A stretch of 62,845 nucleotides of DNA. It comes from Nitrospirota bacterium (lineage in GTDB: Bacteria > Nitrospirota > Thermodesulfovibrionia > Thermodesulfovibrionales > BMS3Bbin05). The position numbers and the translations under genes were made by a program. The notes under the pieces were generated by a model, which saw nothing but the letters and a program-made list of their open reading frames with translations, was not told the DNA's origin and ran no database searches. The stretch is taken from the NCBI GenBank assembly GCA_020351835.1, contig CP070669.1, positions 1,157,682 through 1,220,526 of the forward strand, read 5' to 3'. How positions within the stretch are numbered: position 1 is the first letter of the stretch; each line of letters begins with the position of its first letter. Below are positions 1,349 to 33,361 of the stretch, one piece after another.

Positions 1349-1356
1349 TCATTAGA

Positions 1357-1656
1357 TCACTTATTTGCTTCTGAACGAACCTTAAGCTCTTCTTCGATAT
1401 CTTTCAGCGATATACCTTCCTCAGCCATGAGAACCAGTATATGGTAGTATAGGTCGGCAAGTTCGGCTATGAGTCTTTCAGCGGTCTCTTCCCTGGACGC
1501 ATGGATGACCTCCAAGGCCTCTTCCTCGACCTTACTAAGTATTTCCTCTTTGCCCTTTTCGAACAGACTGCATGTATATGAGCCGGGAACTGGATTGTTC
1601 TTTCTGTCTTTGATCAGATCAAAAAGTTTATCAACTATCTTTTTTTCCATATACAT
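1357..1656 (-). CDS. hisE: Phosphoribosyl-ATP pyrophosphohydrolase
   Basis: [27 protein letters not shown]...[23 protein letters not shown] is a typical HisE sequence. It overlaps hisI by 26 nt. Confidence 0.85.
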
Positions 1657-2008
1657 CCTCTTCGGAGAATGTTTTATCAGAGATATTATTACCGTCTATG
1701 TCACGGTAGAAACAGCTTCTATACCCGGCATGACACGCTCCAGGGCCGTGCTGGACAGCCTTTATGAGCAAAGTATCGGCGTCACAGTCGATCAGTATCT
1801 CCTTTACCTCCTGGACATGGCCGGAGGACTCGCCTTTCTTCCAGAACTTCTTCCGTGACCTTGACCAGAAGTGGGTATAACCGGTTGAAATGGTCTCTTT
1901 GAGAGAGGAATCGTTCATATAAGCCATCATAAGCACCTCACCGGAACCTGCATCCTGGACGATGGCCGGGATAAGGCCATTACCGTCATACTTAATATCA
2001 CTTATCAT
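1631..2008 (-). CDS. hisI: Phosphoribosyl-AMP cyclohydrolase
   Basis: [21 protein letters not shown]...[52 protein letters not shown] matches HisI hallmark motifs. Confidence 0.9.
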
Positions 2009-2120
2009 TATCGGACCCCCTTAATATGCTGATCATTCACGTTATAAAACAATAGAGAACGTTATTGATTATAATATAAGCGGGAGGTTTTGAGCATAGC
2101 GTTACAAACATATTACTCAT

Positions 2121-2429
2121 ATGAAAGAGCAGGGATACACAGATATAATATGTAAGAGATTCTGCAGTTTTTATAGAGAGGGCAAGGAGGGGCTCCTTTG
2201 CGGGACATATATCTATCTCAAAGAAAATTATGAGCCCTCAGAGCTTGAGCAGGCGATCATTGGGATAGGGGCCAGCCCATCACTTGATAATGATGACATC
2301 GTTAGCCGGAGAGCATGCAATGAGTGCGAGTTCCGTATAGACGGATGTGATTTCAGAGACGGCATTGATTCACCTCCCTGCGGGGGTTATATTATAGTCG
2401 AGCACATAGTAAAGAAAGAAGGGAGCTAG
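2121..2429 (+). CDS. Small cysteine-rich hypothetical protein (8 Cys)
   Basis: A 102-aa ORF carries CKRFCSF...LLCG...ACNECEFRIDGCDF...PPCGG. It ends with tandem stops TAG-TAA (2427-2432), 1 nt before the sixA start. No family was recognised. Confidence 0.45.
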   Translation: MKEQGYTDIICKRFCSFYREGKEGLLCGTYIYLKENYEPSELEQAIIGIGASPSLDNDDIVSRRACNECEFRIDGCDFRDGIDSPPCGGYIIVEHIVKKEGS

Positions 2430-2433
2430 TAAA

Positions 2434-2883
2434 TTGAGGTTATACCTCGTTCGCCATGGAGAGGCATTGAGCCAGGATGAAGATCCCGAAAGGGGGCTTT
2501 CAGCAACCGGGATGCATGACATAAACAAGGTAGCATCTCACATGGCTGCCAGGGGTGTCGCGGTCGAGAGCATTTTTCATAGTGGCAAAAAAAGGGCAAG
2601 GCAGACGGCTGAGATCATAGCAGGTGCAATAGATGTTAAAAAGGACGTTTTTGAGGCTGCCGGATTAAGACCGGAGGATGACCCGTCGATCTGGGCAGGG
2701 AAATTGAGTGGTATGGAAAAGGACGTAATGCTTGTTGGACACCTCCCCCACCTTGGAGCCCTTGCAACCAGATTGACCGGTGTAAGGGGCCTGACACTTG
2801 GAACAGGACAGGCTATATGTATCATGCTTGGTAAGGATGGGTCAGGGTCAGTTAAATGGACGGTAGCGCCGCAGGGCATTTAG
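2434..2883 (+). CDS. sixA: Phosphohistidine phosphatase SixA (histidine phosphatase superfamily)
   Basis: MRLYLVRHGEA (RHG catalytic motif), GKKRARQTAEII and LVGHLPHL are present. The start is TTG, with a GGGAG SD 8 nt upstream. Confidence 0.8.
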   Translation: MRLYLVRHGEALSQDEDPERGLSATGMHDINKVASHMAARGVAVESIFHSGKKRARQTAEIIAGAIDVKKDVFEAAGLRPEDDPSIWAGKLSGMEKDVMLVGHLPHLGALATRLTGVRGLTLGTGQAICIMLGKDGSGSVKWTVAPQGI

Positions 2884-2888
2884 CAGGA

Positions 2889-3827
2889 TCAGTATTCCCG
2901 CCAGTTCATGGGTACCATATTATCCGTAGCATAACTGTTAAGCTTGAAGTATAGTTTTTCTGCCTCTTCAAGCTGCTTTTCTGCGAACCAAAGGACGTTC
3001 TCAAACTCGAACTTTGCACTAAGGCTTTTCCGGTTGTTCGATCGTTCGTTCAAATATACGATATAATCTGCCCAGGCGTTCTTATATGCTGCAAACTCCT
3101 TGAAGCGGTTCCTCCACCATCTCTCGCTGTGTCCACCGGGATGGTCGCCTGCAAACTTCTTGCTCGTGAAAACTATCACATTCTTTTCTGTATCAATATT
3201 TATTGCGTATTTAGTTAGAAAGTCCATGCCGACAAGCCCTTCCCATGCGTCCGACAGAGAATCGGTAACCGTGGCCGGTATAAAGAGGTCCTCGGCACCT
3301 CCTATGTTGATTGAATCTATGATAGTACGCAGGGCAGGGACGGTTCCTCCGATACCAGCCGCCAGTATCACCAGATTCCCATCATCGCCTGTCAGGATAT
3401 CAAGCTTATTTGCCAGTTCCCGGGAAAGGATCAATCCCGGAGACCCTGTATCAACCGCCATCTTCGCCTTTACAGATCCATTTAGAGTAACCGGCACTAT
3501 TATCCTGTCAGCCCGGCCCTCAAATGCCTCATAGGAAACCTCGAACCTGGGTGCTTCATCCTTTTGTGCCTCGGGCCTTTCAGGCGCTGTCTGTGCTGGT
3601 GTACTTTCCGCTTCTTCTAAATTATCCTCCTCTTTTTCTTCGACCTTTTCTATTTCATCGATATCTACCTGGTCAGAATACTCTTCGGGTATATTTGCAG
3701 GCGAATCGGTAAAGTGCATGTTGCCTTTGTCATCGACCCACTTATAAAGCTTGCCCGATTCGGCGAAGGATAGGGATCCGAACATTAAGATGATAATTAT
3801 TGATAATGCAGCTGCCAGCGATCTCAT
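2889..3827 (-). CDS. Secreted retropepsin-like (clan AA) aspartic peptidase with an N-terminal DUF4124-like module
   Basis: It has a signal peptide, then GKLYKWVDDKGNMHFTDSP (DUF4124-like) and an acidic linker. The segment VPVTLNGSVKAKMAVDTGSPGLILS contains the DTG active-site motif. Confidence 0.65.
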   Translation of the reverse strand: MRSLAAALSIIIILMFGSLSFAESGKLYKWVDDKGNMHFTDSPANIPEEYSDQVDIDEIEKVEEKEEDNLEEAESTPAQTAPERPEAQKDEAPRFEVSYEAFEGRADRIIVPVTLNGSVKAKMAVDTGSPGLILSRELANKLDILTGDDGNLVILAAGIGGTVPALRTIIDSINIGGAEDLFIPATVTDSLSDAWEGLVGMDFLTKYAINIDTEKNVIVFTSKKFAGDHPGGHSERWWRNRFKEFAAYKNAWADYIVYLNERSNNRKSLSAKFEFENVLWFAEKQLEEAEKLYFKLNSYATDNMVPMNWREY

Positions 3828-20285: not shown

Positions 20286-20362
20286 GGCGGTGTAGCTCAG
20301 GTGGTCAGAGCATGCGGCTCATATCCGCAGTGTCGGGGGTTCAAATCCCTCCACCGCCACCA
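20286..20362 (+). tRNA. tRNA with anticodon CAT, either elongator tRNA-Met or lysidine-modified tRNA-Ile2, with encoded CCA
   Basis: It folds as a cloverleaf: acceptor GGCGGTG/CACCGCC, D-arm GCTC/GAGC, anticodon stem TGCGG/CCGCA with loop CTCATAT, T-arm GGGGG-TTCAAAT-CCCTC, then ACCA. The G1:C72 pair argues against an initiator. Confidence 0.9.
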
Positions 20363-20400
20363 ACACCATACTTGTCAGAACAGACGCCGGAGCTGAAGGG

Positions 20401-21474
20401 TTATTTAGCGTGTTCCAATGCTTTTAGCTTTTCAGCCTGGAAATGAGTGGTGAGGGAATCAATGACCTCATCCAGTTCACCCTCCATGAACTGGGGAAGT
20501 TTGTGAAGCGTTAGGCCTATTCTGTGGTCGGATATCCGTGTCTGGGGGTAATTATATGTCCTGATGCGTTCGCTCCTGTCCCCGGACCCGACCTGGGATT
20601 TCCTTGATTCAGCTATCTCCTGGTTCTGCCGCTCTATCTCCATATCATATAACCGGGACCTGAGCACCTTAAGAGCCTTGGCCTTGTTCTTTATCTGGGA
20701 CCTCTCGTCCTGGCATTGTACTATCAGGCCGGTAGGTATATGGACTATCCTCACAGCAGAATAAGTAGTGTTCACTCCCTGTCCGCCCGGCCCAGAAGCG
20801 CAGAAAGTATCTATCCTGAGGTCTTTTTCCTCTATGTGTAGGTCTACATCCTCGGCTTCAGGCAGTACAGCAACGGTCGCGGCTGAGGTATGTATCCTCC
20901 CGGATGTTTCAGTAGTTGGGACGCGCTGTACCCTGTGCACCCCGCTCTCGTATTTCAGACGGCTATAAACACCCTTGCCGCTAATGGTCGCTATCACCTC
21001 TTTCATCCCACCTATGCCGGTGGGGCTGGAGCTGAGCACCTCAACTTTCCAGCCGTTGCGCTCCGCATACTTTGAATACATTCTGAAAAGGTCGGCGGCG
21101 AACAATGCTGCCTCATCTCCACCCGTGCCTGCCCGGATCTCTATGATAACGTTCCTTTCATCGCGCTTGTCCTTAGGCAGTAACATTATCTTAAGCTCCT
21201 CTGCAAGGGCAGAGATAACCGGTCTAAGGATATCTATCTCTTCCCTTGCAAGTTCCTTAAGGTCACTGTCGCCGCTTTTCATTACATCTTCAGCACCGGC
21301 AAGGTCATCAAGGGCCTTCGTGTACTCTCTTATCTTGCTGACCACAGGTCCGAGGTCCGAGTGTTCCTTTGATACTCTTTGCAATTCCTTCGGGGAAGAG
21401 ATAACTGCAGGGTCGGATAACATCTCGTTGAGTGCCTCATATCTCTTCTCTATGTCTTTAAGTTTATCGATCAT
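20401..21474 (-). CDS. prfA: Peptide chain release factor 1
   Basis: The GGQ motif ([10 protein letters not shown]) is present. [20 protein letters not shown] carries an RF1-type PxT tripeptide, and no RF2 frameshift site is seen. Confidence 0.93.
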
Positions 21475-22334
21475 TTGTTCCCGCTCAGCGCCACGGCCTC
21501 TTTAAGGGCAACGATAGCGACCTCTATCTGAGACTCGTCAGGCTCGCGCGTTGTAAGCCTTTGAAGGAGCAGGCCGGGCTGGATCATGATGTTAACGAAA
21601 GGGTTGTCCTTCATCTTTGAAGAAAGCTTGAGGGTCTCATACGATACCCCCGCTATCACCGGTATAAGAACTATCCTTGAAAGGAACTTCATCACAAAAC
21701 CCCATGAATGAGGTATAAGTGAGAATATAAATATACTCAGGATCATTACAATGAACAAAAAACTTGTTCCACATCGTGGATGATGGGGACTGAACGCCCT
21801 TACGGATCCGACCTCCAGTTCAAGCCCTTCTTCATACGCATGGATGGCCTTATGCTCTGCGCCGTGGTATTCGAATATCCTTGCCATGTCCTTCCATAGC
21901 CCGATAAGGAACACATAAAGAATAAAGAATGCCACCCTTATCACACCGTCGATCATATTGAACCATAAGGAGCTGTCGGCTGTTCCGGGAATAAGCTTGG
22001 TCAAGTACAAAGGGAGGAGTATAAATATTGCAACTGCAAGCCCAAATGCAGAAAGTATGGTTAATCCCATCGCCAACGGGGTCAGTGGTTTTTCGTCTTC
22101 CTCGATATATGCCTTTGAAGCTGAAAAGTCTATTGCCTTAACACCTATCACCAGTGCGTCTAAGAGTGCGACTACACCCCTGATAAAAGGCAACTTCATG
22201 AATCCCCTGCGGGCGTCCATGGGCTGTCTTTTGATATGTATCTCACCCTTGGGGTCACGGACCGCTACTGTCCAACCCCCGTGTGATTTCATCATTACTC
22301 CCTCTATTACTGCCTGTCCGCCTATATTGTCCAT
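21471..22334 (-). CDS. DUF1385 domain-containing membrane protein
   Basis: [13 protein letters not shown]... and [10 protein letters not shown] are present. Its position between rpmE and prfA is typical, with an ATGA-type overlap onto prfA. Confidence 0.8.
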
Positions 22335-22383
22335 TATTTATCTCTTATGTTCTCAAGTATTGTCCTGTTCAATGATTTTGAAG

Positions 22384-22422
22384 ACAAAAAAGCCGTACGG
22401 CCCCGGGGCTCGAACGGCTTTT
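22384..22422 (-). terminator. Rho-independent terminator after rpmE
   Basis: The minus strand reads AAGCCGT-tcgaGCCCCGGGGCcgt-ACGGCTT followed by a T-run. It lies in the 101-nt gap between rpmE and the DUF1385 gene. Confidence 0.6.
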
Positions 22423-22435
22423 GATATCTTTATAT

Positions 22436-22642
22436 CTACTTGTCTTTTTTAGCGTATTTCTTCTTGAACTTATCCACTCTACCTTCGGCGTCAACTATCT
22501 TCTGCTTGCCGGTGAAGAACGGATGGCACTGTGAGCATATATCAATATGTATGGACGGAGTTGTGGATTTTACCTCGAACGACTCCCCGCACGCGCAAAC
22601 CACTTTTGACTCCTTGTAGTCCGGATGAATACCCTCTTTCAC
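22436..22642 (-). CDS. rpmE: 50S ribosomal protein L31 (Zn-ribbon type)
   Basis: MKEGIHPDY...CACG...[20 protein letters not shown]. Confidence 0.95.
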
Positions 22643-22717
22643 AGTTGAAACCTCCTTCTAGCAACGATCTGAACCATTATTATAGTAAATAGATAGCGAA
22701 TATGGCAATAGTGAATG

Positions 22718-24112
22718 TTATCCAGAAAGGGCAGTAGAAATTGCAGTAACTATTTGATTTATTTGCGATGTAGATATGGTCATGACATCGAGAACCAGGC
22801 GGTCATCGCTGATCCTTGCGATCACAGGCGGGTTGCTCTTCCTTAAGCGCTCCTCAATTGTATTAACGGAAATCTTATGGGGAATGACAGAAACGGTCCA
22901 GGTAACGAACTCGGCGTCAGGCAGGGAGCCTCCGCCCGCCCGGGTGATATCCTTCCTGATGCTTATATCTGCCTTGACCCCGGCCTTTTTCAATGCTGAA
23001 GAGAGCCTCCGCGCCCTTATTTTAAGTGCTTCGTTCGAAGAATACAGCATCTTCAGTACCGGGATCCGCCGCTTTGCCAGCTCCTGATCTGCGTATATCA
23101 TGAAAACGGACTCCAGCGCCGATAACGTGAATTTGTCTACCCGCAAAGCTCTCGTTAAAGGATGTTTCTGTATACTCTGGATCAGGTCCTTCCGACCGAC
23201 AATTATACCGGCCTGCGGGCCCCCAAGAAGCTTATCACCGCTAAAGGTTGTAATATCTATCCCCGACCTGACAATGTTCTGTACCATAGGTTCATCATGA
23301 ATACCAAGAGGGTTCAGGTCAACCAGGCAGCCGCTTCCCAGGTCGTACATCGATACGATACCGTTCTTCTTGCCCAGAGCGGACAGATCGTCAACGGATA
23401 CATCTGATGTGAAGCCGCTGATCCTGAAGTTAGAACGGTGGGCCTTAAGCAACAGTCCTGTGTTCTCATTTATTGCAGCTTCGTAATCTCGCAGGTGCGT
23501 CTTATTAGTAGCACCAACCTCTTTAAGAATTGCACCGCTCTGCTCCATTACTTCAGGTATACGGAACGAGCCACCTATCTCTATAAGTTCGCCCCTTGAT
23601 ACGATTGCCTCTTTGCCCCTTGCAAGCGCGCTTAAGCATAGTAGGACGGCCGCGGCGTTGTTGTTCACTATGAGGCAGTCCTCGGCACCGGTTATCTCAT
23701 TAATAAGTTCCCTTATGTGTGAGTATCTTTTCCCTCTGGCACCCTTATCAAGATCATATTCGAGATTGGAGTACCCTTCAGCTACCTTCATTACGTTCTG
23801 AAGCACGTCTTTTGGCAGGGGGGCCCTTCCCAGGTTCGTGTGGATCACTATACCGGTTGCATTTATCACAGGTCTAAGGTTAGGGCTCAGCAGAACATCA
23901 AGAGAGCTAAGCACCTCTCTGATAATATCGTCCGTATCTACCCTGACCTGAGCACCCGAGCGTATCCTTTCTCTGTTATCATCTATCACTTTCCTGGCAG
24001 CCATAAGCCCGAAAGCCCTTGGGTATTCTTTTAAACGCTCTTCGATAAGTTCGTTCTTTATTATCTGGTCAACGGAAGGGAGGTTTCGTAATAGAGATCG
24101 TTTGTCATCCAT
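22718..24112 (-). CDS. selA: L-seryl-tRNA(Sec) selenium transferase
   Basis: LLRNLPSVDQII, VINATGIVIHTNLGRAP, NNNAAAVLL, GGSFRIPEVM and the PLP-lysine context FSGDKLLGGPQAG are present. Confidence 0.92.
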   Translation of the reverse strand: MDDKRSLLRNLPSVDQIIKNELIEERLKEYPRAFGLMAARKVIDDNRERIRSGAQVRVDTDDIIREVLSSLDVLLSPNLRPVINATGIVIHTNLGRAPLPKDVLQNVMKVAEGYSNLEYDLDKGARGKRYSHIRELINEITGAEDCLIVNNNAAAVLLCLSALARGKEAIVSRGELIEIGGSFRIPEVMEQSGAILKEVGATNKTHLRDYEAAINENTGLLLKAHRSNFRISGFTSDVSVDDLSALGKKNGIVSMYDLGSGCLVDLNPLGIHDEPMVQNIVRSGIDITTFSGDKLLGGPQAGIIVGRKDLIQSIQKHPLTRALRVDKFTLSALESVFMIYADQELAKRRIPVLKMLYSSNEALKIRARRLSSALKKAGVKADISIRKDITRAGGGSLPDAEFVTWTVSVIPHKISVNTIEERLRKSNPPVIARISDDRLVLDVMTISTSQINQIVTAISTALSG

Positions 24113-24148: not shown

Positions 24149-24628
24149 TTAGTGCGACAGGTCCGTCAGGCCGACAATTTTCCTGATGAACCGCTTAATG
24201 AATGGTAACTTGTTCAGGGCCGGGGTGAACATCTCTTTCCTGCAAATAAGATATTTTAACGGGAAGTGAAGATGAAGCAAAAGTGCCCGCCCGTTCACTG
24301 TGGATACTTTTCCGAGGACATTACTAAGCGGGATGATGCCGTCATCTTCAATTAAGGCATCTCCTCTTGTGACAACGCCGTCAGGAAGTATACGGATTAT
24401 CCGGTGAAGGAGGGGCATGTCATTTAATTGTCTTAGCAGGATCACATCACCTGTCTTCAGAGGAGAGCTTACAGGCATAACCGTGACGGTATCTCCCTCA
24501 ACTATGAAAGGCTCCATGCTGTCCCCGGTAGCAGAAAATCGAAGGTGATGCTTACCCGAAATTAGATCCTCGGCGATCTCAGAAAAAACCCTGCTGTCAG
24601 TAATGTCATATATATTGTGATCATTCAT
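24149..24628 (-). CDS. Soluble ER/archaeal-type (S26B, SipW/Sec11-like) signal-peptidase-fold protease, candidate RiPP leader peptidase
   Basis: All four S26B boxes are present: GDSMEP, GDVILL, LLHRII (His replacing the Lys general base) and TRGDALIEDD. No hydrophobic N-terminal anchor precedes the catalytic Ser. Confidence 0.6.
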   Translation of the reverse strand: MNDHNIYDITDSRVFSEIAEDLISGKHHLRFSATGDSMEPFIVEGDTVTVMPVSSPLKTGDVILLRQLNDMPLLHRIIRILPDGVVTRGDALIEDDGIIPLSNVLGKVSTVNGRALLLHLHFPLKYLICRKEMFTPALNKLPFIKRFIRKIVGLTDLSH

Positions 24629-24630
24629 CG

Positions 24631-25557
24631 CTATGACAATATTTCCTTAACGAAATCAAAGATATTATGATCAGGGTAAAAATGAAGGTCATAGCAGGGC
24701 ACATTGCTTATAAGATCGTCGCAAGATGAAAGGATACCTGCGACCGCCTCCCTGTCAAACCATGGGGAGGATACCGCCGGGAGTAACCTCTCTATAGCAT
24801 CAATTGGCGATATCTCATTTGCGATGTTCTCTGTCCCGTGATGAATAAAGAACAGACCACCTACCTCAACCTTAGAATTAGATGCAATGCCTTCCTCTCC
24901 CGGCCAGGGGGTCCCGTAAGCAAGATATCCTTTGCCGTTGCTTCTTATTACTACGCGGTCATCACTAAGGAGAGGTTCCTTTGATCTCTCTGCGATAAGT
25001 CTTGAGATGGTGCTTTTCCCTGACCCCGAACGCCCTGCAAATATGAGGCCCCTATTATTGATCGATGATCCTGCTGCATGCACAATAAGACCCCTTCGGT
25101 TCGATAGATAATACATCAGTAGTATCTGGTCCAGAGGGTATCTGACAGGATTGGCCGATATAATGTCAGGCGCTCCCTCGATGATAAATCTTTCATCGCA
25201 TTTGATAGACACTTCATCATTATCGCCGTTCATTTCAGCGACAAGAAGAATGTCGTCATGCCCCGTGCCGTAGAGCTTTATATATGAGCTTCCGCTGTCC
25301 CTGTAAAAGGACCAGGAGGATCCGTTATCGAACAACATGGGGATATCAGTCATGTCCGGAGGGTCGCTTATATCTACTGATATGCTCAGGTCGTGATCCG
25401 TAATATGGTCGATAGTGCTAAAGAAGGGGCCATAGCACGGATCATTTTCGAGCAGTTCAGATATTCCCTTCAGCTTCAGTAGTGATCTTACTCCTCCAAT
25501 ATCAAGTATGTAAGATGCAGGCATTACTTCCGGGGTTATGACCCGGGGCTTGAACAA
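24631..25557 (-). CDS. HPr kinase/phosphorylase C-domain-like (HprK-related) P-loop kinase
   Basis: LIVHAAGSSINNRGLIFAGRSGSGKSTISRLI....LLSDDRVVI matches the HprK catalytic-domain pattern. The likely true start is ATG 25524 (GGAAG SD), 11 nt after the precursor stop, rather than TTG 25557. Confidence 0.7.
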   Translation of the reverse strand: MFKPRVITPEVMPASYILDIGGVRSLLKLKGISELLENDPCYGPFFSTIDHITDHDLSISVDISDPPDMTDIPMLFDNGSSWSFYRDSGSSYIKLYGTGHDDILLVAEMNGDNDEVSIKCDERFIIEGAPDIISANPVRYPLDQILLMYYLSNRRGLIVHAAGSSINNRGLIFAGRSGSGKSTISRLIAERSKEPLLSDDRVVIRSNGKGYLAYGTPWPGEEGIASNSKVEVGGLFFIHHGTENIANEISPIDAIERLLPAVSSPWFDREAVAGILSSCDDLISNVPCYDLHFYPDHNIFDFVKEILS

Positions 25558-25718
25558 TTATTAAGTGTGCAAGGGGATCCCAGAGGAGCAGAGCCCCCGG
25601 CCGAGAGCTTACATCCTACGGCCATGATCTCTTCAGCAGCCAGGTCTATCTTCCTGAGAGAAGGTTTTTCATAGGTTCTTTTAGGTGTATCTTCTGTTTT
25701 CCTGTCAGTGTTCATCAA
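25536..25718 (-). CDS. RiPP precursor peptide candidate (59-60 aa; YxxPxL leader, 3-Cys core, C-terminal Ser)
   Basis: (M)MNTDRKTEDTPKRTYEKPSLRKIDLAAEEIMAVGCKLSAGGSAPLGSPCTLNNCSSPGS. It is wedged between the rSAM/SPASM gene (5-8 nt gap) and the kinase gene. ATG 25715 follows TTG 25718. Confidence 0.6.
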   Translation of the reverse strand: MMNTDRKTEDTPKRTYEKPSLRKIDLAAEEIMAVGCKLSAGGSAPLGSPCTLNNCSSPGS

Positions 25719-25723
25719 CTATA

Positions 25724-26800
25724 TTATAGCTCATTATTAATTAATTGAAAACGATGCGAACCAAGATCGCACAGATATTTTGACCGCTCACTTTCAGAAC
25801 CTGTCTCAAGCTCAGCAAAGCCAGGGCATATCCCACACAATGATCTCTTATTGCAGCTAGTGCAATCCGACCCCGGGTCGGCCAGTTTGCCCTTTATCTG
25901 TGAGCTTATACTCTGCCAGCCGGCACTGAAACTTCCTCTATTGAGGTCATAGCTAATATGCCGGGTCATAAGACATGGTTTAAGGTTCCCTGAAGCATCT
26001 ATGTGGAAGTTGGTAGAGCCGGCACCGCAGGAATACAGGTTCTTAGACGGCCTAAGTCCTTTAAACTTATTATAGTGCTTCCTCCACTGATCAATTCTGG
26101 CGGGATCCGAAAATTCCATTTCCACTGCTGTTCGGGGAGATATCCTCAGGTCCATCGGACCTTGATCACCATTCAGGCGGGGAAATATAGCAGGATCGAG
26201 CCTGAACGGTGCTCCGAACCGTCCTGCTGTTCTCCGTATCTCAAAGAGATCATCCGCGTTAAGGGACATAAGTACCGTCTTAAGCTTAACATTAATACTT
26301 GATGAGACAAGAAGCTCGATCCCCTGAATGCAGCGCCTGAAAGATCCAGCGATGCCCGTGATCGACTCATATACCTTCTGTGACGAACCGTATAGACTGA
26401 TCTCGACGGATGCAGGAGGATAACTTTTCAACAGATCGGCGATCGCTATATCGACCAGGGTGCCGTTAGAGAAGACCGATACCAGAAGGCCCCTCATTTT
26501 TGCATGAACATATATCTCCCTGAAATCTTTTCTTAAGAGAGGCTCGCCCCCGGTTAATAGCAGATGTAAACATCCGGATTCGGTTATTTCGTCTATTATC
26601 TTACAAATTGTTGAGGTGTTCATCTCGATCGTTTTGCGTTCCCGGCCATCAGAAATGTAACAATGTGAACATCTCAGATTGCAGGAGTCGGTAAGGTCTA
26701 TGCTGCCGGATAAAGGGACCTTCTGTTCAAATACTTTTTTGCTAAAATCCCTGAGAAAGGCCTCATCACTAAGCCAGGAAGTCTGTTCACAGGAGTGCAT
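25724..26800 (-). CDS. Radical SAM / SPASM-domain peptide maturase
   Basis: CNLRCSHC (CX3CX2C), GGEPLL, and the C-terminal CGAG...C...CTSCNKRSLCGIC...C auxiliary Fe-S cysteines are present. Confidence 0.88.
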   Translation of the reverse strand: MHSCEQTSWLSDEAFLRDFSKKVFEQKVPLSGSIDLTDSCNLRCSHCYISDGRERKTIEMNTSTICKIIDEITESGCLHLLLTGGEPLLRKDFREIYVHAKMRGLLVSVFSNGTLVDIAIADLLKSYPPASVEISLYGSSQKVYESITGIAGSFRRCIQGIELLVSSSINVKLKTVLMSLNADDLFEIRRTAGRFGAPFRLDPAIFPRLNGDQGPMDLRISPRTAVEMEFSDPARIDQWRKHYNKFKGLRPSKNLYSCGAGSTNFHIDASGNLKPCLMTRHISYDLNRGSFSAGWQSISSQIKGKLADPGSDCTSCNKRSLCGICPGFAELETGSESERSKYLCDLGSHRFQLINNEL

Positions 26801-27120
26801 TATGTGGTCTCCTCGATCAGGCCTTCTCCCAGCAGATCATCTATGAGCTCTTTAAGGTCTCTTTGAGCAACATCGAGGCCTACATCAAATTCCTTAAGGA
26901 CGGCATCAAGCACCGAACTCATGCTGGAACTTCCATCAAGACTGTCCCAGATGAGCTCGGACACCGAGGACAATGAGAATATCTTTTGCATATCGGCCAG
27001 ATTGCCATGAACAGGAACAAGGAACATCTCGCCAGCTATCTTTCGCGAGACGATATTGTCCCTTCTCCTGAACTTTTTTTCGGAAAAATTATCTGTCAGA
27101 TCCAAATGACTATACCTCAA
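26800..27120 (-). CDS. PqqD-family peptide chaperone (RiPP recognition element)
   Basis: IVSRKIAGEMFLV..., FSLSSVSELIWDSLDGSSSMSSVLDAVLKEFDV....AQRDLKELIDDLLGEGLIE is a typical PqqD pattern. Its stop overlaps the rSAM ATG by 1 nt. The TTG start lies 1 nt after the stop of the giant gene. Confidence 0.8.
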   Translation of the reverse strand: MRYSHLDLTDNFSEKKFRRRDNIVSRKIAGEMFLVPVHGNLADMQKIFSLSSVSELIWDSLDGSSSMSSVLDAVLKEFDVGLDVAQRDLKELIDDLLGEGLIEETT

Positions 27121-27121
27121 T

Positions 27122-30100
27122 TCAGTGAACTATCAGAGCAGGATCTCCAAGGAGATTGTATATATATATCATAAAGGGATCCATTCCTTTGTCGCTATAC
27201 CCCTTAAATGCTTTGATTATTATATCACCGATCGCTGAGTTATCCGAAGTGCCATCAAACAGGGCTTTATAGAACTCTCCATTGAGAGTAACCGCTCTTG
27301 AGTTAATTGATAGACCGGCCGGGGACCAGACGGCCACAGCGCCACCTTTAGGCTTTATGGAAAGCAGCTCACCAAGAGAGTCATGACCGGGAAATGCGAA
27401 CTGCCCGACCATGCACGTCAATGCGTTGAAGACAGGGAGCCTCGTATTTTCTTCAAGTGTCTCAATATCACCGGAGATCAGCAGGCCTTCGTCCGCGATG
27501 CGGTCGAGACCCCCGTGGCCAATATAATTGACCATATCGATGCCATTGTTCAGGGCATCCATAACAGCATTATGTACAACTGCCGGGGAACTCTCAGAGA
27601 GATAAACCTTGTCCATTTTATAGTAATGCGGAAATAGCGTAGAAATGCTGTCACTGTCCACGGAGAAGTCGGCGCCATCCGATGGATCATCAGCAATGAA
27701 AAGTACTTTCTTCTGAACCGGCGATAATGATTCATAGGAGATTATCTTATTTATCACGGCACCAAGCTCTTTATCAGAGACAACGGGTAAGCGACCAATG
27801 GCAATATCAGGAACGTTATCTCCCGATAGGTCAGCAAAATAATTATCTGAGGGGAACAGCCCGTTAGGCGTACTTATCATTGCTGTCGGGATCAGGTTAT
27901 CGTCTGTCCCCAGATAGTTCTTGTAGTCAAAAGTTCCCTCACCCACCAGCACGACATATTTGGGACTTAGGGCCCAGTTCTTTACTGAATATGACAGGAA
28001 CCTGCGTATAGTTTCTGGATCATATATCCCATGATTAAACTCGTCCATAATATCTTCAAGGTCAATTATCATCGGTGTGTATCCCTGTCCCTTACGGTGC
28101 TCAGCCAATGCCGAAGAGGCTTCCTTAAGCTGGGAAGGAACGATCAAGATGTAATCAGCCCTGTTATGTCTCGATCTAAGTGAAGAAGCGCTATCAGCCC
28201 ACATTGCGGGTTCGTTTACGGAGCCCCTGGATATAGCGATATAGTCGCGGCCGCTTGATACCGGTGAGAAGCTTATACTGTATCCATTATCGGCCATTGC
28301 AATGTTAGCCCCGGTTATAAGTAACGGTGATGGAGGCTCGGTAACATCCATCAGCATGATATCCGGTGATGAGAACCCTTCAACAGTTAAGACCTTATCT
28401 TTATTTGAACTGAATGCCAAGACGTCATTTATAGCTACGTAATTTCTCATATAGCGGATGGCAAAAGAATCTAAATAGAAGATGCTGTATGGAGCCCCGG
28501 TATCAAGTGATCCATTGATACTCAACATATTATCCCCGTCATTGAAAATATCACTGTCAAAGTAAAGCTCTACACTATGGGGCCTTGTGCCGTCCCATGA
28601 GGTTTCACCTACAGGGATGCCGTTTATGGATATTGCCGCATGATGATCAATGGCTGAATCGACATCGGTAGCTCCCATAAGATGTATCGACAATGATGCC
28701 GTGGCAGATACATTAGACAGGCCGGGAGTCGAGAAGTTGAAGGAGGTCTCACCGTTTCCTGCTACCACATATTGCCACAGCCAGTAATCGCTTGATGGTT
28801 CATCAAAGAGCGCTGTCGCCGGGAAGTTGTTCTCTTCATATCTGATCTCATCAGCGAATGATCGAGTGCCGTAAGCAGACAAAGGATCATTTCCGCTGAC
28901 GGTCCGGATCGTCTTGCCCTTTCCTGTTCCGATCCAGTAAACGGTCTGATTTGAATAAATGCTTTCAGGCGCCTGGCTATAGAAAAAGATACCGTTACCT
29001 TCTTCTGCCCGATGATAGGCTATCGGGGCCCCTTTATGGGATATCGATATTAATGCATTACTGATAAGGTCCTTCATCCTGCTCAAGGGTATCTTAAGAA
29101 GGGATGATAATGTGCCGGCATCAACGAAATTGAGACCATTGCTCCTGATCGAGACCTTTACACTGTTACCTCTTCTGGTTCTCTTCATAAGCCTCGCGAG
29201 TTCTCTCAGCCTTCTTGCCTCCTCAATGCGAGCCTGCTTGTGGTCAGTTATTGCGTGAGGCATGCTTACATACTTCAGGGTTGCAGCAGACATCCCTTCT
29301 GATCCAGGTCGGAGAACATCAGTCGGTGATAACTGTTCATCACGGTGATCTGCGGTTACCAGAGGTTGCCGGTCCTGCAATTGAATATCAGGACCATTTT
29401 CGATAGATCGAGGCTCGCTCTCGTCGACAAGAAATGTCTTTACCAGCTGTTTTATCCTCACTCTTCTAAGAGCGCTCTGTTTGTCCGTTATTATTATTGT
29501 CCCTTCATCATCAACAAAATGTATTACCTCGTCCTCTATCTCCTTGTTGAAAGCCTGCTTTGAGTTCGGTTCGTCAGGATAAGAGCCGGCTATGCTTATT
29601 GACCCATTAATGTCTATTGTGTATGGACCGAACATCCGTTCGTTCCCATTTTGCTCTACCTCGACCAGGACATATGTATTACTCCCGGTTGTCGATGCTT
29701 CGGGGTCAACAATTTTGTATTTGCCTCCCTGTTGAGAAGTCATTAAGCCCGGCAACAATGTCTCATTTACCCTCTTATACCTGCCTGAGCTCAGGTCATA
29801 GCGTAACACATGAAAACCTACCGTACCCGACTCAGATGAGGTCTCCCATTCGACAGAGATATTGTCACCATTCCTGTTCGCACCAAACGATGAAACGACT
29901 GCCTGCGTGAGAATGATGGAATCGCAGACTGTGCTGCTTATCGATCCAAGGACCCAGTCCGCTTTATCATTGGTATCATTGCCGGCCGGGGAGCGTTCGA
30001 TAGCGTACCCTATGGTCATCCCGGCAACATTCTTAAAGGAGTCATCCTGCCAAATGTTCGCGGTTACAGCCGCCGAGTCATCGCCCAGAAAATCAACAGA

Positions 30101-33073
30101 CGGTGAAAGTGTAGCGCTCCAGCTTACATAATCCTTGATCGCACTTGATGGGTCGTATAGAGATATCTGGTCTGCCCTGTTCTCATCTAAAGCAGCCCCC
30201 GGATCACCAAAACTATCCGAAGGAAAAGACGGGGAGGATGTATCAAACACATAATATATCCCACTACTATAGTAGTCCGTAGGAGCGCTTGCCGTATCAT
30301 AGAGAGAAAGGATTATGCTCTCACCGGACTGAAGCGTTATGGAAGGGATCGTATAACTGAACGAGTCCTCGTCGGTTAGAACGTAGTTAGTAGCATCAAA
30401 CGGATTAGGGGAAGAGTTATATAGTTCTATATACTCCGTCTGGCAGGTCGAGTTGTCCGGATAGAAAAGGATGCTGTTGATCACAAGGTCCGGCGCGTTG
30501 TAACTGGCAGTATCTGTTTTGATATCATTCCCTGGATTTGAATCTGAGTCGTCACAGTCTGTATAAGCTGCATCTATATCATTTCCGTTCGAGACCTCAA
30601 TGACGAGATCGTTCGTAACGCTTGCCCCGTCGTAAGTCGAGGTCATCAACGGACTTGCGGTGAAACTTATTGCAGTCCTGCTCGCTGAAAGAGAGGTTGT
30701 CAGCGTTATCTGGGTCTCACTGTCTACAGTTGCTACGGTATAAGTACCTTCGTCAGGACCGTTGGCAATAACGAACGTGTCACCTGCCGAAACTCCATCT
30801 GCCTGGAATGTAGATGATGCTGAGGTTACCACTGCAGAACCTGCAGTAGTTACCAGGTCGTTCTCGCGGTTCATATATTCACCTGAGCCGGCAAATGTTT
30901 CATACAGAGTGATCGTTTCCGAATCACCATCCGGGCTCGTTACTGTTGCAGTTACGGTCTCTATACCCGGCGGTGTTTCGGTGGTCGAGCACGCGTTGTT
31001 ATCAACCACCTTTATAAATACCGGTTCATTAGGAGCGTATAAACTTATATCCTGGGTGCCCGCGCCGTTCATAAAAGCGACCCTCCCGGCCCCTACCGTA
31101 GAGAACAAAGAGGCGGTTGAAGATACGGTGTAGGGCGATCCAGTGCAGATTGGATTTGATGATGTATAAATATAGTCAACTGTTACAACCCCGCCGTCTA
31201 CATCTTCCCATAGGTCATCATCAAGCTCACCTCCGGAGACATCTATGCCATTTGTTATCATGGTCTGAAGTCCGTCATCTCCAAGTGTTGCGTTCGTATT
31301 TCTGAACTCGCCGGTATCATTTCCTGTTTCGACCAGAGTAAGTGTTTCACTGTCAACATTGAGATTGCACGTTTCGACCCCGGGACAATCGCTATCCTGA
31401 GAGCAATAGGTGGTAAAAGTGGTCGAACAGAAGCCAAGTGTTCCGGTCAGTGTTACCGTAATTGTCTCCTGGCTAGCAGGGCTTGTATTGGCCTCTGCGT
31501 GGATCACGTTCACGTACATCTGGTCGGATGTTGCCGGGTCCGAAGTAATGGAGTAACTTGTTACATCGATCCCATTGGCTCGAGAGAACTTGATGGTAGC
31601 GCCGCAAGCATCGATTATGTCCGCATCATCCGTTACTGTTATGGAATTAGGATTAGTGTATGAGACATATATAACATCTCCATTGTTGATCTCAAGGTCC
31701 TGATCATTATCGGTTCCCGGATTAGACGAGCTTGAGATGCACGTACTGATGTCGGACGCGCAGTTCTGGTTGGTGAATATCCCTGTCAACGGACCGGTCT
31801 CGACCAGATTAACGGTCTCATCATCGCCTGTTGTCGGATTGGTCATGGTCACGGTTATGGAATCTATGACGCCTCCATTGCATGAATCCCCTGCACCGGG
31901 GCAGTCTGCGTCCGTTTCGCATGATGTAGCGGTATCTATCTCGCAGAATCTCCCCGTTTCTGCGGCCGGGTCCTTAACGTAGGTATAAAGGTTGTCCGTA
32001 ACAGTATAGAAGTCAACAAAGTTCAGTGAAGAATCGGTAAACTCTATGATAGGTTTCCCGTTGGGATAGACAATGTCTCCGAATGTGATAGGGTCCGAAT
32101 TCGATATGTAGTTAAGGTCCATCATATGGTCCTTCTGGAGAGGGTCCTGGTTCGAGGCGCCTGTCGAATAAACAAAGGCAACCGGAGAATCCGGCCATAG
32201 AACCTGATTGCCGTTACTGTCATTGAACGATGTCATCGGAACCTGGATCTCGATCCAGTAATCACCCGATCCGTCTGTAGTTGGAACTATTCTCGTATGG
32301 GACATCCCTGTCGGATCACACATAATGGTGCACGTGTCGGCACCCGGACAGTCTGAATCGACCCGGCAACCTTCCGGGTCGGGGTCGCTGAGAGTGGATG
32401 TGCAAAGGCCTATGTTATCAACATCGTTCTGTGCCTGAAAATGATCGACCCTTACTCCTGCGGCATCCGGGTCACTGATATCCTGCTGGTTAGAATTGTC
32501 ATAGAGGACATTGAGGCGGTCATAGGTGTTATCGCAGTCCGTGTTCGAACATGATCCCTCAAGATCTACCCAGTATTCCTTGTATCCGTCACCGTCAACG
32601 TCGATCAAAATATTCCAGTGGTATGATTTAAATGCGGTACCGGGGTTGCCCCCGTCGTTTGGGTCGCCCGTGACCCTCATCCTGAAGAATATTACATCGT
32701 CCTCCATTGTAGAGGGGTCTGCAGGGTCGTAGGGAGTTCCTCCATTATAGTATCCGAAGGACGGCGTAGATTCCGATCCGGGATTAGTCACAGCGTCTGC
32801 ATAAGAGGCCAGGTCAGTTGCAGCGGGTGTAACATTTGCCTGGCCACGAGTTGGATCACCAGAACCCACGGCCTCATAGTCGCTTATGATCTGGCCCTGA
32901 TAAGTGTAATCAGTTATAAATCCCGGGTTATTGCTGAATGAGCTCCAGTCTATAGCACATCCGGCAAAGTCAGCATATGAGTTTATAGAACTAAATGCTA
33001 CTAGTAAGAATATCAGTGCAAACGTGCATAGAATGCCGCTTATGCTTTTTGTCTTCCTAAAGAACTTCATCAT
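27122..33073 (-). CDS. Giant secreted multidomain protein (about 1983-1990 aa) with an LTD (lamin-tail) domain and a C-terminal peptidase C25 (gingipain-like cysteine protease) domain
   Basis: The signal peptide is MMKFFRKTKSISGILCTFALIFLLVAFSSINSYA/D, starting at ATG 33073 with an AAGGTG SD; the track start GTG 33094 is also possible. An LTD-like segment (VINSILFYPDNSTCQTEYIELYNSS...ADQISLYD) lies at about 30100-30495. The C25 region at about 27125-28170 has ADYILIVPS, IAIGRLPV, NYIGHGG (His codon 27515-27517) and FNALTCMVGQF (Cys codon 27413-27415). Confidence 0.85.
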   Translation of the reverse strand: MMKFFRKTKSISGILCTFALIFLLVAFSSINSYADFAGCAIDWSSFSNNPGFITDYTYQGQIISDYEAVGSGDPTRGQANVTPAATDLASYADAVTNPGSESTPSFGYYNGGTPYDPADPSTMEDDVIFFRMRVTGDPNDGGNPGTAFKSYHWNILIDVDGDGYKEYWVDLEGSCSNTDCDNTYDRLNVLYDNSNQQDISDPDAAGVRVDHFQAQNDVDNIGLCTSTLSDPDPEGCRVDSDCPGADTCTIMCDPTGMSHTRIVPTTDGSGDYWIEIQVPMTSFNDSNGNQVLWPDSPVAFVYSTGASNQDPLQKDHMMDLNYISNSDPITFGDIVYPNGKPIIEFTDSSLNFVDFYTVTDNLYTYVKDPAAETGRFCEIDTATSCETDADCPGAGDSCNGGVIDSITVTMTNPTTGDDETVNLVETGPLTGIFTNQNCASDISTCISSSSNPGTDNDQDLEINNGDVIYVSYTNPNSITVTDDADIIDACGATIKFSRANGIDVTSYSITSDPATSDQMYVNVIHAEANTSPASQETITVTLTGTLGFCSTTFTTYCSQDSDCPGVETCNLNVDSETLTLVETGNDTGEFRNTNATLGDDGLQTMITNGIDVSGGELDDDLWEDVDGGVVTVDYIYTSSNPICTGSPYTVSSTASLFSTVGAGRVAFMNGAGTQDISLYAPNEPVFIKVVDNNACSTTETPPGIETVTATVTSPDGDSETITLYETFAGSGEYMNRENDLVTTAGSAVVTSASSTFQADGVSAGDTFVIANGPDEGTYTVATVDSETQITLTTSLSASRTAISFTASPLMTSTYDGASVTNDLVIEVSNGNDIDAAYTDCDDSDSNPGNDIKTDTASYNAPDLVINSILFYPDNSTCQTEYIELYNSSPNPFDATNYVLTDEDSFSYTIPSITLQSGESIILSLYDTASAPTDYYSSGIYYVFDTSSPSFPSDSFGDPGAALDENRADQISLYDPSSAIKDYVSWSATLSPSVDFLGDDSAAVTANIWQDDSFKNVAGMTIGYAIERSPAGNDTNDKADWVLGSISSTVCDSIILTQAVVSSFGANRNGDNISVEWETSSESGTVGFHVLRYDLSSGRYKRVNETLLPGLMTSQQGGKYKIVDPEASTTGSNTYVLVEVEQNGNERMFGPYTIDINGSISIAGSYPDEPNSKQAFNKEIEDEVIHFVDDEGTIIITDKQSALRRVRIKQLVKTFLVDESEPRSIENGPDIQLQDRQPLVTADHRDEQLSPTDVLRPGSEGMSAATLKYVSMPHAITDHKQARIEEARRLRELARLMKRTRRGNSVKVSIRSNGLNFVDAGTLSSLLKIPLSRMKDLISNALISISHKGAPIAYHRAEEGNGIFFYSQAPESIYSNQTVYWIGTGKGKTIRTVSGNDPLSAYGTRSFADEIRYEENNFPATALFDEPSSDYWLWQYVVAGNGETSFNFSTPGLSNVSATASLSIHLMGATDVDSAIDHHAAISINGIPVGETSWDGTRPHSVELYFDSDIFNDGDNMLSINGSLDTGAPYSIFYLDSFAIRYMRNYVAINDVLAFSSNKDKVLTVEGFSSPDIMLMDVTEPPSPLLITGANIAMADNGYSISFSPVSSGRDYIAISRGSVNEPAMWADSASSLRSRHNRADYILIVPSQLKEASSALAEHRKGQGYTPMIIDLEDIMDEFNHGIYDPETIRRFLSYSVKNWALSPKYVVLVGEGTFDYKNYLGTDDNLIPTAMISTPNGLFPSDNYFADLSGDNVPDIAIGRLPVVSDKELGAVINKIISYESLSPVQKKVLFIADDPSDGADFSVDSDSISTLFPHYYKMDKVYLSESSPAVVHNAVMDALNNGIDMVNYIGHGGLDRIADEGLLISGDIETLEENTRLPVFNALTCMVGQFAFPGHDSLGELLSIKPKGGAVAVWSPAGLSINSRAVTLNGEFYKALFDGTSDNSAIGDIIIKAFKGYSDKGMDPFMIYIYNLLGDPALIVH

Positions 33074-33361
33074 TGACACCTTTATAACTGCCACATATAT
33101 AAGGACAGTTATTTCATTATATCAAATAAAGAAAGCAATTACTATGCCAAAGCAAAAAACATTAAATATCGGTCATATACGCTACCAATTAATAATAGTT
33201 AGGACAAATTATGTTATATGATGCTTAATATATACCACAAACTTCCCAATAAATGTGTATAAAATAAGTAAACATTATTTGTGGGAAGCGATTCCAAACG
33301 TTAATTCTTTGGAGGATGAAAAATTGACGGGCTACCTTATTTATTATAGAATCTATCCAAT

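Follow-up and report, generated by a model that had tools for sequence, protein, structure and literature searches.

Among the radical S-adenosylmethionine (rSAM) enzymes with SPASM domains that act on peptides made by ribosomes and modified after translation (RiPPs), SkfB, PapB and QhpD form thioethers, and MftC of the mycofactocin pathway is a C-terminal decarboxylase and crosslinker, not a thioether synthase. In the Qhp system the rSAM-crosslinked peptide, QhpC, becomes a subunit of a large exported enzyme (QHNDH) encoded in the same operon. The leaders of lasso peptide precursors carry a YxxPxL element that is bound by the B1 RiPP recognition element (RRE) (PMC6784204), and HPr-kinase homologues encoded in lasso clusters act specifically on a C-terminal Ser, whose side chain they phosphorylate, in substrates that otherwise share little (PMC8498205). 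Described here is a compact peptide-maturation cassette in a stretch of 62,845 nucleotides from a Nitrospirota bacterium (assembly GCA_020351835.1, contig CP070669.1, positions 1,157,682 to 1,220,526). This whole stretch is called the window, and all coordinates refer to it. The cassette is most likely a six-gene operon that runs on the minus strand from 33094 to 24149. On balance, the operon probably serves the RRE-dependent maturation of a small peptide and is tied to a giant PorU-like peptidase of family C25.

In order of transcription, the operon comprises genes for a giant secreted C25 protein of 1990 residues (27122..33094), a discrete small PqqD-family RRE protein (open reading frame (ORF) 26800..27120), an rSAM/SPASM peptide maturase of 358 residues (25724..26800), a precursor peptide of 59 residues (25536..25715, ORF to 25718), a 297-residue P-loop protein of the ScmC family with the HprK/PEPCK fold that is a putative peptide Ser kinase (24631..25524, ORF to 25557), and a soluble S26B-like peptidase of 159 residues that is a putative leader peptidase (24149..24628). 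The start was set at 33094 because the next upstream gene (33362, plus strand) is divergent. Along the whole operon, the junctions overlap or span 1-16 nt. The C25 stop lies 1 nt ahead of the PqqD ORF, and the TAA of PqqD shares one nucleotide with the ATG of the rSAM gene at 26800 (TAATG). The rSAM gene is separated from the peptide gene by 5 nt (to a TTG) or 8 nt (to ATG 25715), the ScmC gene follows the peptide gene after a gap of 11 nt (ATG 25524) or with an overlap of 22 nt (TTG 25557), and a gap of 2 nt leads to the peptidase gene (ATG 24628). An initial annotation of this DNA had described five close-packed minus-strand genes at 24149-27120. The ORF list and the sequence bear out the position of these genes and the junctions between them, and the five identities proposed for their products also stand (PF05402 for PqqD, PF04055 and TIGR04085 for the rSAM protein, an HprK fold, and S26B motifs). 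The annotation stopped one gene short, however, as it missed the giant C25 gene, recognized by matches to PF01364 and LTD, which is the most consistent neighbor of the cassette and which alters its likely biology.

Loci, given here under L numbers, were fetched from 80 species-representative genomes, all of them metagenome-assembled. The source groups were Nitrospirota, Planctomycetota, Desulfobacterota, Acidobacteriota, Actinomycetota, Chloroflexota, Lentisphaerota, Verrucomicrobiota, Kiritimatiellia, Omnitrophota and others. Searches of six-frame ORFs with phmmer recovered the order C25 giant, PqqD, rSAM, peptide, ScmC, S26-like nearly everywhere. The order is shared by the first nine of the groups named, with a minor permutation in Acidobacteriota. 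With about ten phyla and dozens of species-level genomes sharing it, the arrangement is far beyond chance. Conservation of the small ORF and of the gene set had been proposed as a check on the initial annotation, and both are kept in more than 70 species genomes. Of 56 evaluable loci, 50 have a C25 gene immediately upstream of the cassette, and two others have one in the vicinity. When the ORFs of 81 neighborhoods were clustered all against all, the only recurrent families were C25, PqqD, rSAM, ScmC and S26, and no transporter, immunity protein or regulator recurred among them. The closest relative on record is assembly GCA_975955985.1, and the genes that flank the cassette appear to be most similar to those of metagenome-assembled Nitrospirota/Thermodesulfovibrionales genomes. 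Positions 24149-27105 of the window were also compared with 839-3795 of locus L085, a 95%-identical relative. Nonsynonymous to synonymous codon changes numbered 20 to 16 in the rSAM gene and 14 to 11 in the ScmC gene, compared with 7 to 31 in the adjacent selA, so the cassette evolves faster than housekeeping genes. The two peptides differ by a single leader change, D4N.

The peptide encoded in the window reads MNTDRKTEDTPKRTYEKPSLRKIDLAAEEIMAVG-CK-LSAGGSAPLGSP-C-TLNN-C-SSPGS. Its key residues are Tyr15, Pro18 and Leu20 in the leader, followed by Cys35-Lys36, Cys49, Cys54 and the C-terminal Ser59. Lengths of 59 and 60 residues had both been suggested for it. A start at ATG 25715, giving 59 residues, is the most likely, and the 60-residue version from the TTG is less so; a gene for a 59-residue peptide is also called in related public annotations. 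A search of a database of 5.8 billion proteins returned only a 98% relative. Because the word index of that search is insensitive to a 59-residue query, homologues were instead gathered by phmmer on the six-frame ORFs of the fetched loci. In more than 70 loci a homologous small ORF occupied this position, giving a family sample of 73 unique sequences. The peptide matched no NCBIfam family.

Members of this family share a conserved leader and vary in the middle of the core. The N-terminus is basic, the motif YxxPx[LIV] is present in 69 of 70 peptides, and an acidic helix-like stretch, I-E-L-A-A-E-E-V-L, follows it. Leader and core meet at an A-x-G-C-K junction, in which the Cys-Lys pair is invariant (72 of 72), the residue at position -3 relative to this pair is Ala, Gly or Ser in 68 of 72 sequences, and the residue at -1 is Gly in 62 of 72. 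A spacer of 10-16 residues, enriched in Gly, Ser, Ala, Pro and Thr, separates this first Cys-Lys from the second Cys. Three Cys are present in 70 of 73 peptides, with the second and third spaced as C-x4-C in 57 and as C-x5-C in 13. The tail after the third Cys is 5-6 residues long and ends in Gly-Ser in 67 peptides, the last residue being Ser in 71 of 73. Overall, Ser makes up 14% and Cys 8% of the core. An analogy to the kinases of phosphorylated lasso peptides had been drawn at the outset, and it is strengthened by the frequency of this C-terminal Ser and of the leader motif. At the 3' end of the rSAM gene, ahead of the precursor gene, a sigma-70-like site (TTTTCA-17-TATAAT, 10 of 12 matches; 25723-25751, minus strand) was seen next to a short hairpin (25754-25772, minus strand). 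An internal promoter here could raise expression of the precursor, and the promoter scan barely exceeds the shuffled expectation. Inspection of repeats, Rfam families and RNA folding around the precursor gene gave nothing significant, the only items being a tRNA-Met (20286-20362) and the hairpin, whose folding z-score was 0.55.

The PqqD-family protein matched PF05402 (E 4e-12) and is found in nearly all related loci. Its best NCBIfam matches are lasso_PqqD_Bac (27.7 bits, cut-off 80) and ScmD, both below cut-off. Its start had been placed at 27120; TTG 27105, which gives 101 residues, is most likely the true start, because L085 has a stop at the upstream codon and a GAGG precedes 27105 by 9 nt. 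The protein is annotated as 101 residues in L085. The rSAM protein matched PF04055 (Radical_SAM, E 9e-22) and carries the motif CNLRCSHC. Its C-terminal 109 residues matched the full length of the SPASM model TIGR04085 (31.2 bits, cut-off 27), and the seven SPASM Cys are conserved across 75 homologues. The nearest named relatives are MftC, which scored 114 bits in a full-length alignment (residues 29-322 against positions 11-309 of the 339 in the model; cut-off 265 bits), and ScmE, with 102 bits. By sequence, the nearest solved structure is that of SkfB (6efn, E 4e-18), and the SPASM domain is closest to those of PapB, CbpB and QhpD. The equivalog models for PapB, SkfB, AlbA and StsB each scored far below their cut-offs. 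Grouping with anSME had been raised as a possible objection to a role in peptide maturation. The anSME model scores just 12 bits, and the resemblance is to the peptide maturases MftC, SkfB, PapB and QhpD.

The ScmC-family protein contains GRSGSGKST (Walker A) and LLSDDRV, the catalytic Asp motif of HprK. In a profile comparison with the Protein Data Bank it matched HprK/P from the P-loop through the DDR motif. An AlphaFold2 model (pLDDT 92.3) retrieved only HprK/P and PEPCK folds at a Foldseek probability of 1.0. Residues G164, S166, G167, G169, K170, T172, S187, D188, D189 and R190 are invariant. Homologues carry precomputed matches to PF27840 ('ScmC') and many also to PF07475. The NCBIfam scores of the window protein, 33.6 bits for HprK_rel_B, 24.9 for ScmC and 21.2 for HprK_rel_A, are all below cut-off, and its exact sequence is absent from the records. 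A word-indexed search gave 643 matches for the family, and an exhaustive search gave 1681 representatives of 50%-identity clusters at E<=1e-30. An NTP_transf_5 nucleotidyltransferase gene occurs near the ScmC gene in about ten loci, directly beside it in L070 and nearby in about nine. In pseudomycoidin a kinase is reportedly paired with a nucleotidyltransferase (PsmN), and NTP_transf_5 may be the enzyme type paired with lasso-peptide kinases in pseudomycoidin-type clusters.

The product of the last gene is, as judged from its conserved Ser, His and Asp boxes and the lack of a membrane segment, a soluble S26B-type peptidase by fold and catalytic type, and not a signal peptidase. Its best NCBIfam match is TIGR02228, archaeal signal peptidase I (41.8 bits, cut-off 51.85). 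PF00717 scored 27.8 bits, which exceeds the gathering score, and the model of the NiSOD maturation protease gave a weak match (E 7e-4). The latter enzyme provides a precedent for a cytoplasmic S26 enzyme. In an alignment with SEC11C (7p2q), the Ser, His and Asp boxes coincide with GDSMEP, LLHRII and TRGDA..DD, and conservation of the motifs G.SM.P, HR and GDa....d across 52 homologues is at least 90%. A segment resembling a transmembrane helix is missing in 44 of 48 homologues, and the maximum KD19 value of the window protein is 1.05, in agreement with the initial description of a peptidase that lacks a membrane anchor. Its inclusion in the cassette was right in part: the gene is frequent, being present in about 41 of 60 evaluable loci, but it is not universal. 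In the loci that lack it, no conserved alternative protease or transporter was found downstream of ScmC, where the genes are mixed and encode a cohesin-domain protein, PMT_2, RNase R or NTP_transf_5.

The giant C25 protein begins with a Sec-type signal peptide, and signal-peptide-like N-termini were seen in 23 of 28 cases. Its N-terminal ~1000 residues are variable and adhesin-like, with an LTD domain and Cys-rich CxxDxDCPG repeats, and conservation is confined to residues ~1050-1170 and ~1300-1990. Within the former lies a conserved beta domain of about 100 residues, called the 'EWET' domain (about residues 1079-1160; 29645-29860, minus strand), with the pattern 'I-x-V-E-W-E-T...G-F-x-V-x-R...'. 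This domain is the sole conserved part outside the C-terminal module, and no Pfam family matched it. Locus L089 encodes it twice, beside ScmC and C25, in separate small proteins that carry a membrane anchor (pairwise E 2e-13 and 1e-10). The C-terminal ~700 residues form a PorU-like C25 module, which scored 271 bits against PF01364. PorU (6za2) was the best sequence match, with E 2.7e-12, and Kgp and RgpB were also matched. Foldseek searches with the AlphaFold2 model of the module (pLDDT 92.4) gave PorU at E 2.8e-32, RgpB at 1e-19 and Kgp at 2e-15. Among 60 homologues, conservation of the catalytic GH and TC motifs reaches 90% or more. No genes of the type IX secretion system were seen in the cassette neighborhoods, the survey covering the flanks.

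Variant loci were found at greater distance. Among six distant C25 homologues (27-30% identity), three adjoin ScmC, PqqD and a peptide with a YxxP leader in altered gene orders. Locus L091 contains PqqD, rSAM, a 62-residue peptide with three Cys and a C-terminal Ser, ScmC, a 170-residue ORF and C25. The SPASM rSAM gene is missing from L090 (3844-12644), from the Caldilineales, in which PqqD, a 42-residue peptide (TYETPTL leader, no Cys, C-terminal Ser) and ScmC are divergent from two C25 genes, and where an ABC-2 transporter follows. No rSAM gene is present in L089 (3324-12141), which encodes ScmC, a 48-residue peptide (PYEKPQV leader, no Cys), C25, an S24/S26-like protein whose gene overlaps that of PqqD in a manner comparable to B1/B2 pairs, and a second C25 protein. 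At the other extreme, Omnitrophota locus L078 (1-6186; also L080-L083) has four rSAM/SPASM genes with PqqD and ScmC, no C25 gene within 10 kb, and a candidate precursor that has a YKSPEI leader, contains six Cys and ends in Ser. The numbers of precursor Cys and rSAM genes are thus 0 and 0 in L089 and L090, 3 and 1 in the main family and L091, and 6 and 4 in L078. Across these variants the leader motif, PqqD and ScmC are constant, and the C25 link persists despite the loss of rSAM.

Based upon these comparisons, a pathway is proposed in which the discrete PqqD protein would bind the leader at Y15-x-x-P18-x-L20 and present it to the enzymes. This role was assigned because YxxPxL is the element recognized by lasso B1 RREs and because the best sub-family match of the protein is a lasso RRE. 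The rSAM/SPASM enzyme would crosslink Cys35, Cys49 and Cys54, most likely as thioethers of the sactionine or ranthionine type, since its nearest relatives SkfB, PapB and QhpD form such bonds. The HprK-fold kinase of the ScmC family would phosphorylate Ser59, a role suggested by the near-invariant C-terminal Ser together with the invariant Walker A and DDR motifs, and the NTP_transf_5 nucleotidyltransferase may extend the phosphate in some genomes. The S26B-like peptidase would remove the leader in the cytoplasm, plausibly between Gly34 and Cys35 of the A-x-G-C-K junction, because this junction fits the -3/-1 rule of signal peptidases. The mature peptide would be a dedicated partner of the C25 protein, as its substrate, acceptor or linker, inhibitor or subunit, and not a free-standing antibiotic. 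A more specific version, which we put forward tentatively and regard as rather doubtful, is that the crosslinked phospho-Ser peptide acts as an acceptor or linker when the C25 module anchors or processes the adhesin, or alternatively as a QhpC-like subunit or inhibitor; the module would then be a PorU-like transpeptidase outside Bacteroidota. With a peptide acting as acceptor or linker, phospho-Ser extended by NTP_transf_5 in some lineages may be joined to exopolysaccharide (EPS). This version is compatible with a C25 linkage that survives rSAM loss, with the PorU-like fold, with the lack of exporter and immunity genes, and with EPS genes that recur beside the cassette. If true, it would mean that a RiPP pathway underlies a new system for protein sorting or surface attachment.

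A number of observations weigh against the assignment of the operon to RRE-dependent maturation of a C25 partner. We infer every step of the pathway from homology and covariation. None of the five proteins encoded downstream of the C25 gene reaches an NCBIfam equivalog cut-off. The C25 protein has a Sec signal; the peptide lacks one, and an exporter is not among the conserved genes. The best full-length match of the rSAM protein is MftC, so chemistry other than thioether formation is also possible, and the covariation of Cys and rSAM counts is drawn from a handful of variant loci. In L089 the peptide ends in Gly, not Ser, despite the presence of ScmC. About one-third of loci lack the S26-like gene though the A-x-G-C-K junction is unchanged in them, and for this reason the case for this enzyme as the one that cuts there is weak; the unrelaxed junction in these loci counts neither for nor against cleavage by it. 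About 4-6 cassettes have no C25 gene within 8-10 kb, and three close C25 homologues have no cassette nearby, so that the C25 link is strong and not absolute.

The enzyme logic of the cassette is typical of RiPP pathways, and the product could instead be a stand-alone secreted RiPP, antimicrobial or signaling, that is phosphorylated and rSAM-crosslinked as the initial annotation proposed, with the C25 protein either incidental or acting as an extracellular leader or activation protease that cuts, for example, after the Lys of G-C-K. A conserved leader joined to a core with a variable middle would be expected of such a peptide, Lys follows the first Cys in all 72 sequences and C25 enzymes include the Lys-specific Kgp, some cassettes have no adjacent C25 gene, and the cassette enzymes evolve faster than selA between two close relatives. 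We nevertheless consider this explanation unlikely. No exporter, immunity gene or regulator is conserved in the 81 neighborhoods. The C25 linkage, seen in 50 of 56 loci and about ten phyla, survives changes in gene order and the loss of rSAM, which is unexpected for an incidental neighbor. Unlike arms-race bacteriocins, the core is as conserved as the leader within clades (L035/L036 and L045/L047/L049/L050), and the C25 module is closer to the sortase PorU than to the gingipains. The same lack of a conserved exporter would suit a peptide-derived small-molecule cofactor of the mycofactocin or PQQ kind, in which chemistry at x-G-S would be followed by release of a fragment by the peptidase and its activation or tagging by the kinase. 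The match of the rSAM protein to MftC over its full length (114 bits), the discrete PqqD partner reminiscent of MftB/MftC, and the invariant C-terminus at a fixed distance from the third Cys also point in this direction. That score is far under the cut-off of 265 bits, however, partners resembling MftD, MftE or MftF, oxidoreductases or glycosyltransferases are not conserved, a C-terminal dipeptide has no need of three conserved Cys and a conserved leader-core junction, and the link to a secreted protease is left unexplained. A cofactor product is thus quite improbable.

Two further explanations concern the target and the purpose of the modifying enzymes. Kinase-initiated dehydration is an established RiPP route, and both Cys and Ser are abundant and conserved in the core. 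The kinase could carry out the first half of a dehydration of the class III/IV lanthipeptide type, with phospho-Ser converted to dehydroalanine and then to a lanthionine-like ring with Cys, the rSAM enzyme being left to epimerize or to form C-C crosslinks. This is very improbable in our estimation, as the cassette has no conserved lyase or cyclase domain, the number of Cys follows the number of rSAM genes and not the presence of the kinase, and HprK-type lasso kinases leave a stable phosphate (PMC8498205). The tight translational coupling to the C25 gene, the Cys-rich repeats of the giant protein, and a divergent upstream gene of the FGE-sulfatase type, which shows that protein-modifying enzymes are encoded nearby, would fit enzymes that modify the giant C25 protein itself in the manner of anSME on sulfatases or of QhpD, with the small ORF as a chaperone, regulator or decoy. 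We give this idea the least credence of all. The giant protein is exported by Sec in an unfolded state and the rSAM, PqqD, ScmC and S26-like proteins reside in the cytoplasm. The binding partners of PqqD RREs are short leaders, and the matching motif, which is conserved, sits in the small peptide. The anSME score is only 12 bits, and what is conserved in the giant protein is the protease module, not the Cys-rich repeats.

The surroundings of the operon differ on its two sides. Divergent from the C25 gene is an EPS locus (33362-57347, plus strand) that encodes an FGE-sulfatase/OmpA protein, an EpsL-like BBP2 porin, Wza (EpsE-like), Wzc (EpsF/G-like), Wzy_C-TPR, glycosyltransferases, a DegT aminotransferase, Polysacc_synt_2 and a GT4 initiating transferase. 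An NTP_transf_5 gene (PF14907, 159 bits; 55115-56248, plus strand) lies inside this locus, 28 kb from the cassette. A porin-Wza-Wzc-Wzy string is also found beside the cassette in about 12 other loci of several phyla (L011, L012, L027, L028, L041, L064, L066, L072, L077 and others), and this recurrence hints at a link to surface or EPS biology. Downstream (20286-24112) are selA (22718-24112; TIGR00474, 613 bits), rpmE, a gene for a DUF1385 protein, prfA and the tRNA-Met gene. These housekeeping genes are syntenic in L085 and lie outside the conserved cassette elsewhere. A defense function was also considered, and PADLOC models gave only generic similarity to viperin-type rSAM proteins and no system match; the idea was given up.

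If the inferred chemistry is right, the cassette defines an unstudied RiPP class that unites a leader, RRE and C-terminal Ser kinase of the lasso type with an rSAM/SPASM enzyme of the sactipeptide or ranthipeptide type and a cytoplasmic leader protease with the signal-peptidase fold. To our knowledge, these three tool-kits have never been found together in a characterized pathway. With 1681 clusters in about ten phyla, mostly of anaerobic uncultured bacteria, the cassette is a frequent and as yet unexplained component of environmental genomes. The near-obligate link with the C25 gene suggests a role at the cell surface rather than in antibiosis, and it offers a testable handle on the function of C25 'sortase-like' proteases outside type IX secretion. 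The predictions are concrete (modification at Cys35, Cys49, Cys54 and Ser59, and cleavage near Gly34/Cys35) and can be tested directly.

Compared with the phosphorylated lasso peptides (paeninodin, pseudomycoidin and the polyphosphorylated proteobacterial peptides), the cassette shares a discrete PqqD-type RRE with a YxxPxL leader, a kinase of the HPr-kinase fold, and a precursor that ends in Ser. NTP_transf_5 stands beside the kinase in a minority of loci only, a pairing that may be compared with PsmN. The asparagine-synthetase-like cyclase and the B2 transglutaminase-type protease of lasso clusters are absent from the operon and from the families that recur in the 81 neighborhoods, as the initial annotation had recognized for the operon itself, and the locus was not assigned to this group. 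Unlike lasso clusters, the cassette has an rSAM/SPASM enzyme, an S26B-like peptidase and a giant C25 protein. Its core has three conserved Cys and no pattern of an Asp or Glu ring acceptor, and its kinase belongs to the Pfam family 'ScmC' and falls below the HprK_rel_A and HprK_rel_B cut-offs. The SynChlorMet cassette was defined in silico and is uncharacterized, and with it the trio of a PqqD-like protein, an HprK-like 'ScmC' and one or more rSAM/SPASM maturases is shared. The initial annotation knew of no characterized class with this enzyme set. The set is indeed uncharacterized, but it is not unrecorded, because the trio is already catalogued in the TIGRFAM 'SynChlorMet cassette' (ScmC/D/E/F models) and in Pfam PF27840. 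Scores for SynChlorMet membership were well under the cut-offs for ScmC (TIGR04249, 24.9 bits against 125), ScmD (TIGR04248, 26.1 against 100), ScmE (TIGR04250, 102.4 against 400) and ScmF (TIGR04251, 77.1 against 400), and the ScmC protein of L003 reached 35.6 bits on TIGR04249 (cut-off 125). The cassette has one rSAM gene where SynChlorMet has two, and it adds the S26-like peptidase and the C25 giant. Membership in SynChlorMet was rejected, and the P-loop protein counts as ScmC only at the level of Pfam PF27840, through the precomputed matches of its homologues. The Omnitrophota loci with multiple rSAM genes (L078-L083) also fall under the SynChlorMet cut-offs.

With the sactipeptide and ranthipeptide enzymes (SkfB, AlbA, PapB, CteB) and the QhpD/QhpC pair, the cassette shares an rSAM enzyme with a full SPASM domain that acts on a Cys-containing ribosomal peptide. 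It differs from them in that its RRE is discrete and not fused and in the additional kinase and S26-like protease, and from the Qhp system in having no exporter like QhpF. From mycofactocin (MftA/B/C) it shares the discrete PqqD partner of an rSAM/SPASM enzyme and the invariant C-terminus of the precursor. Membership in that pathway was rejected, since the MftC score was 114 bits, with a cut-off of 265, and the precursor has G-S and not G-V-Y at its end. Unlike mycofactocin, the cassette has no equivalents of MftD, MftE or MftF, and its precursor has three conserved Cys. The C-terminal 700 residues of the giant protein correspond to PorU over its multi-domain architecture and to RgpB and Kgp over the catalytic domain, with the catalytic His and Cys kept. 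Unlike PorU, the giant protein is encoded by hosts outside Bacteroidota, and its C25 module ends an adhesin-like protein of 1000-2800 residues. We know of no linkage of PorU or the gingipains to a RiPP-like cassette. Because this combination of genes is undescribed in the open-access papers and preprints searched, the cassette is placed among the RRE-dependent rSAM RiPP pathways as an uncharacterized and widespread member.

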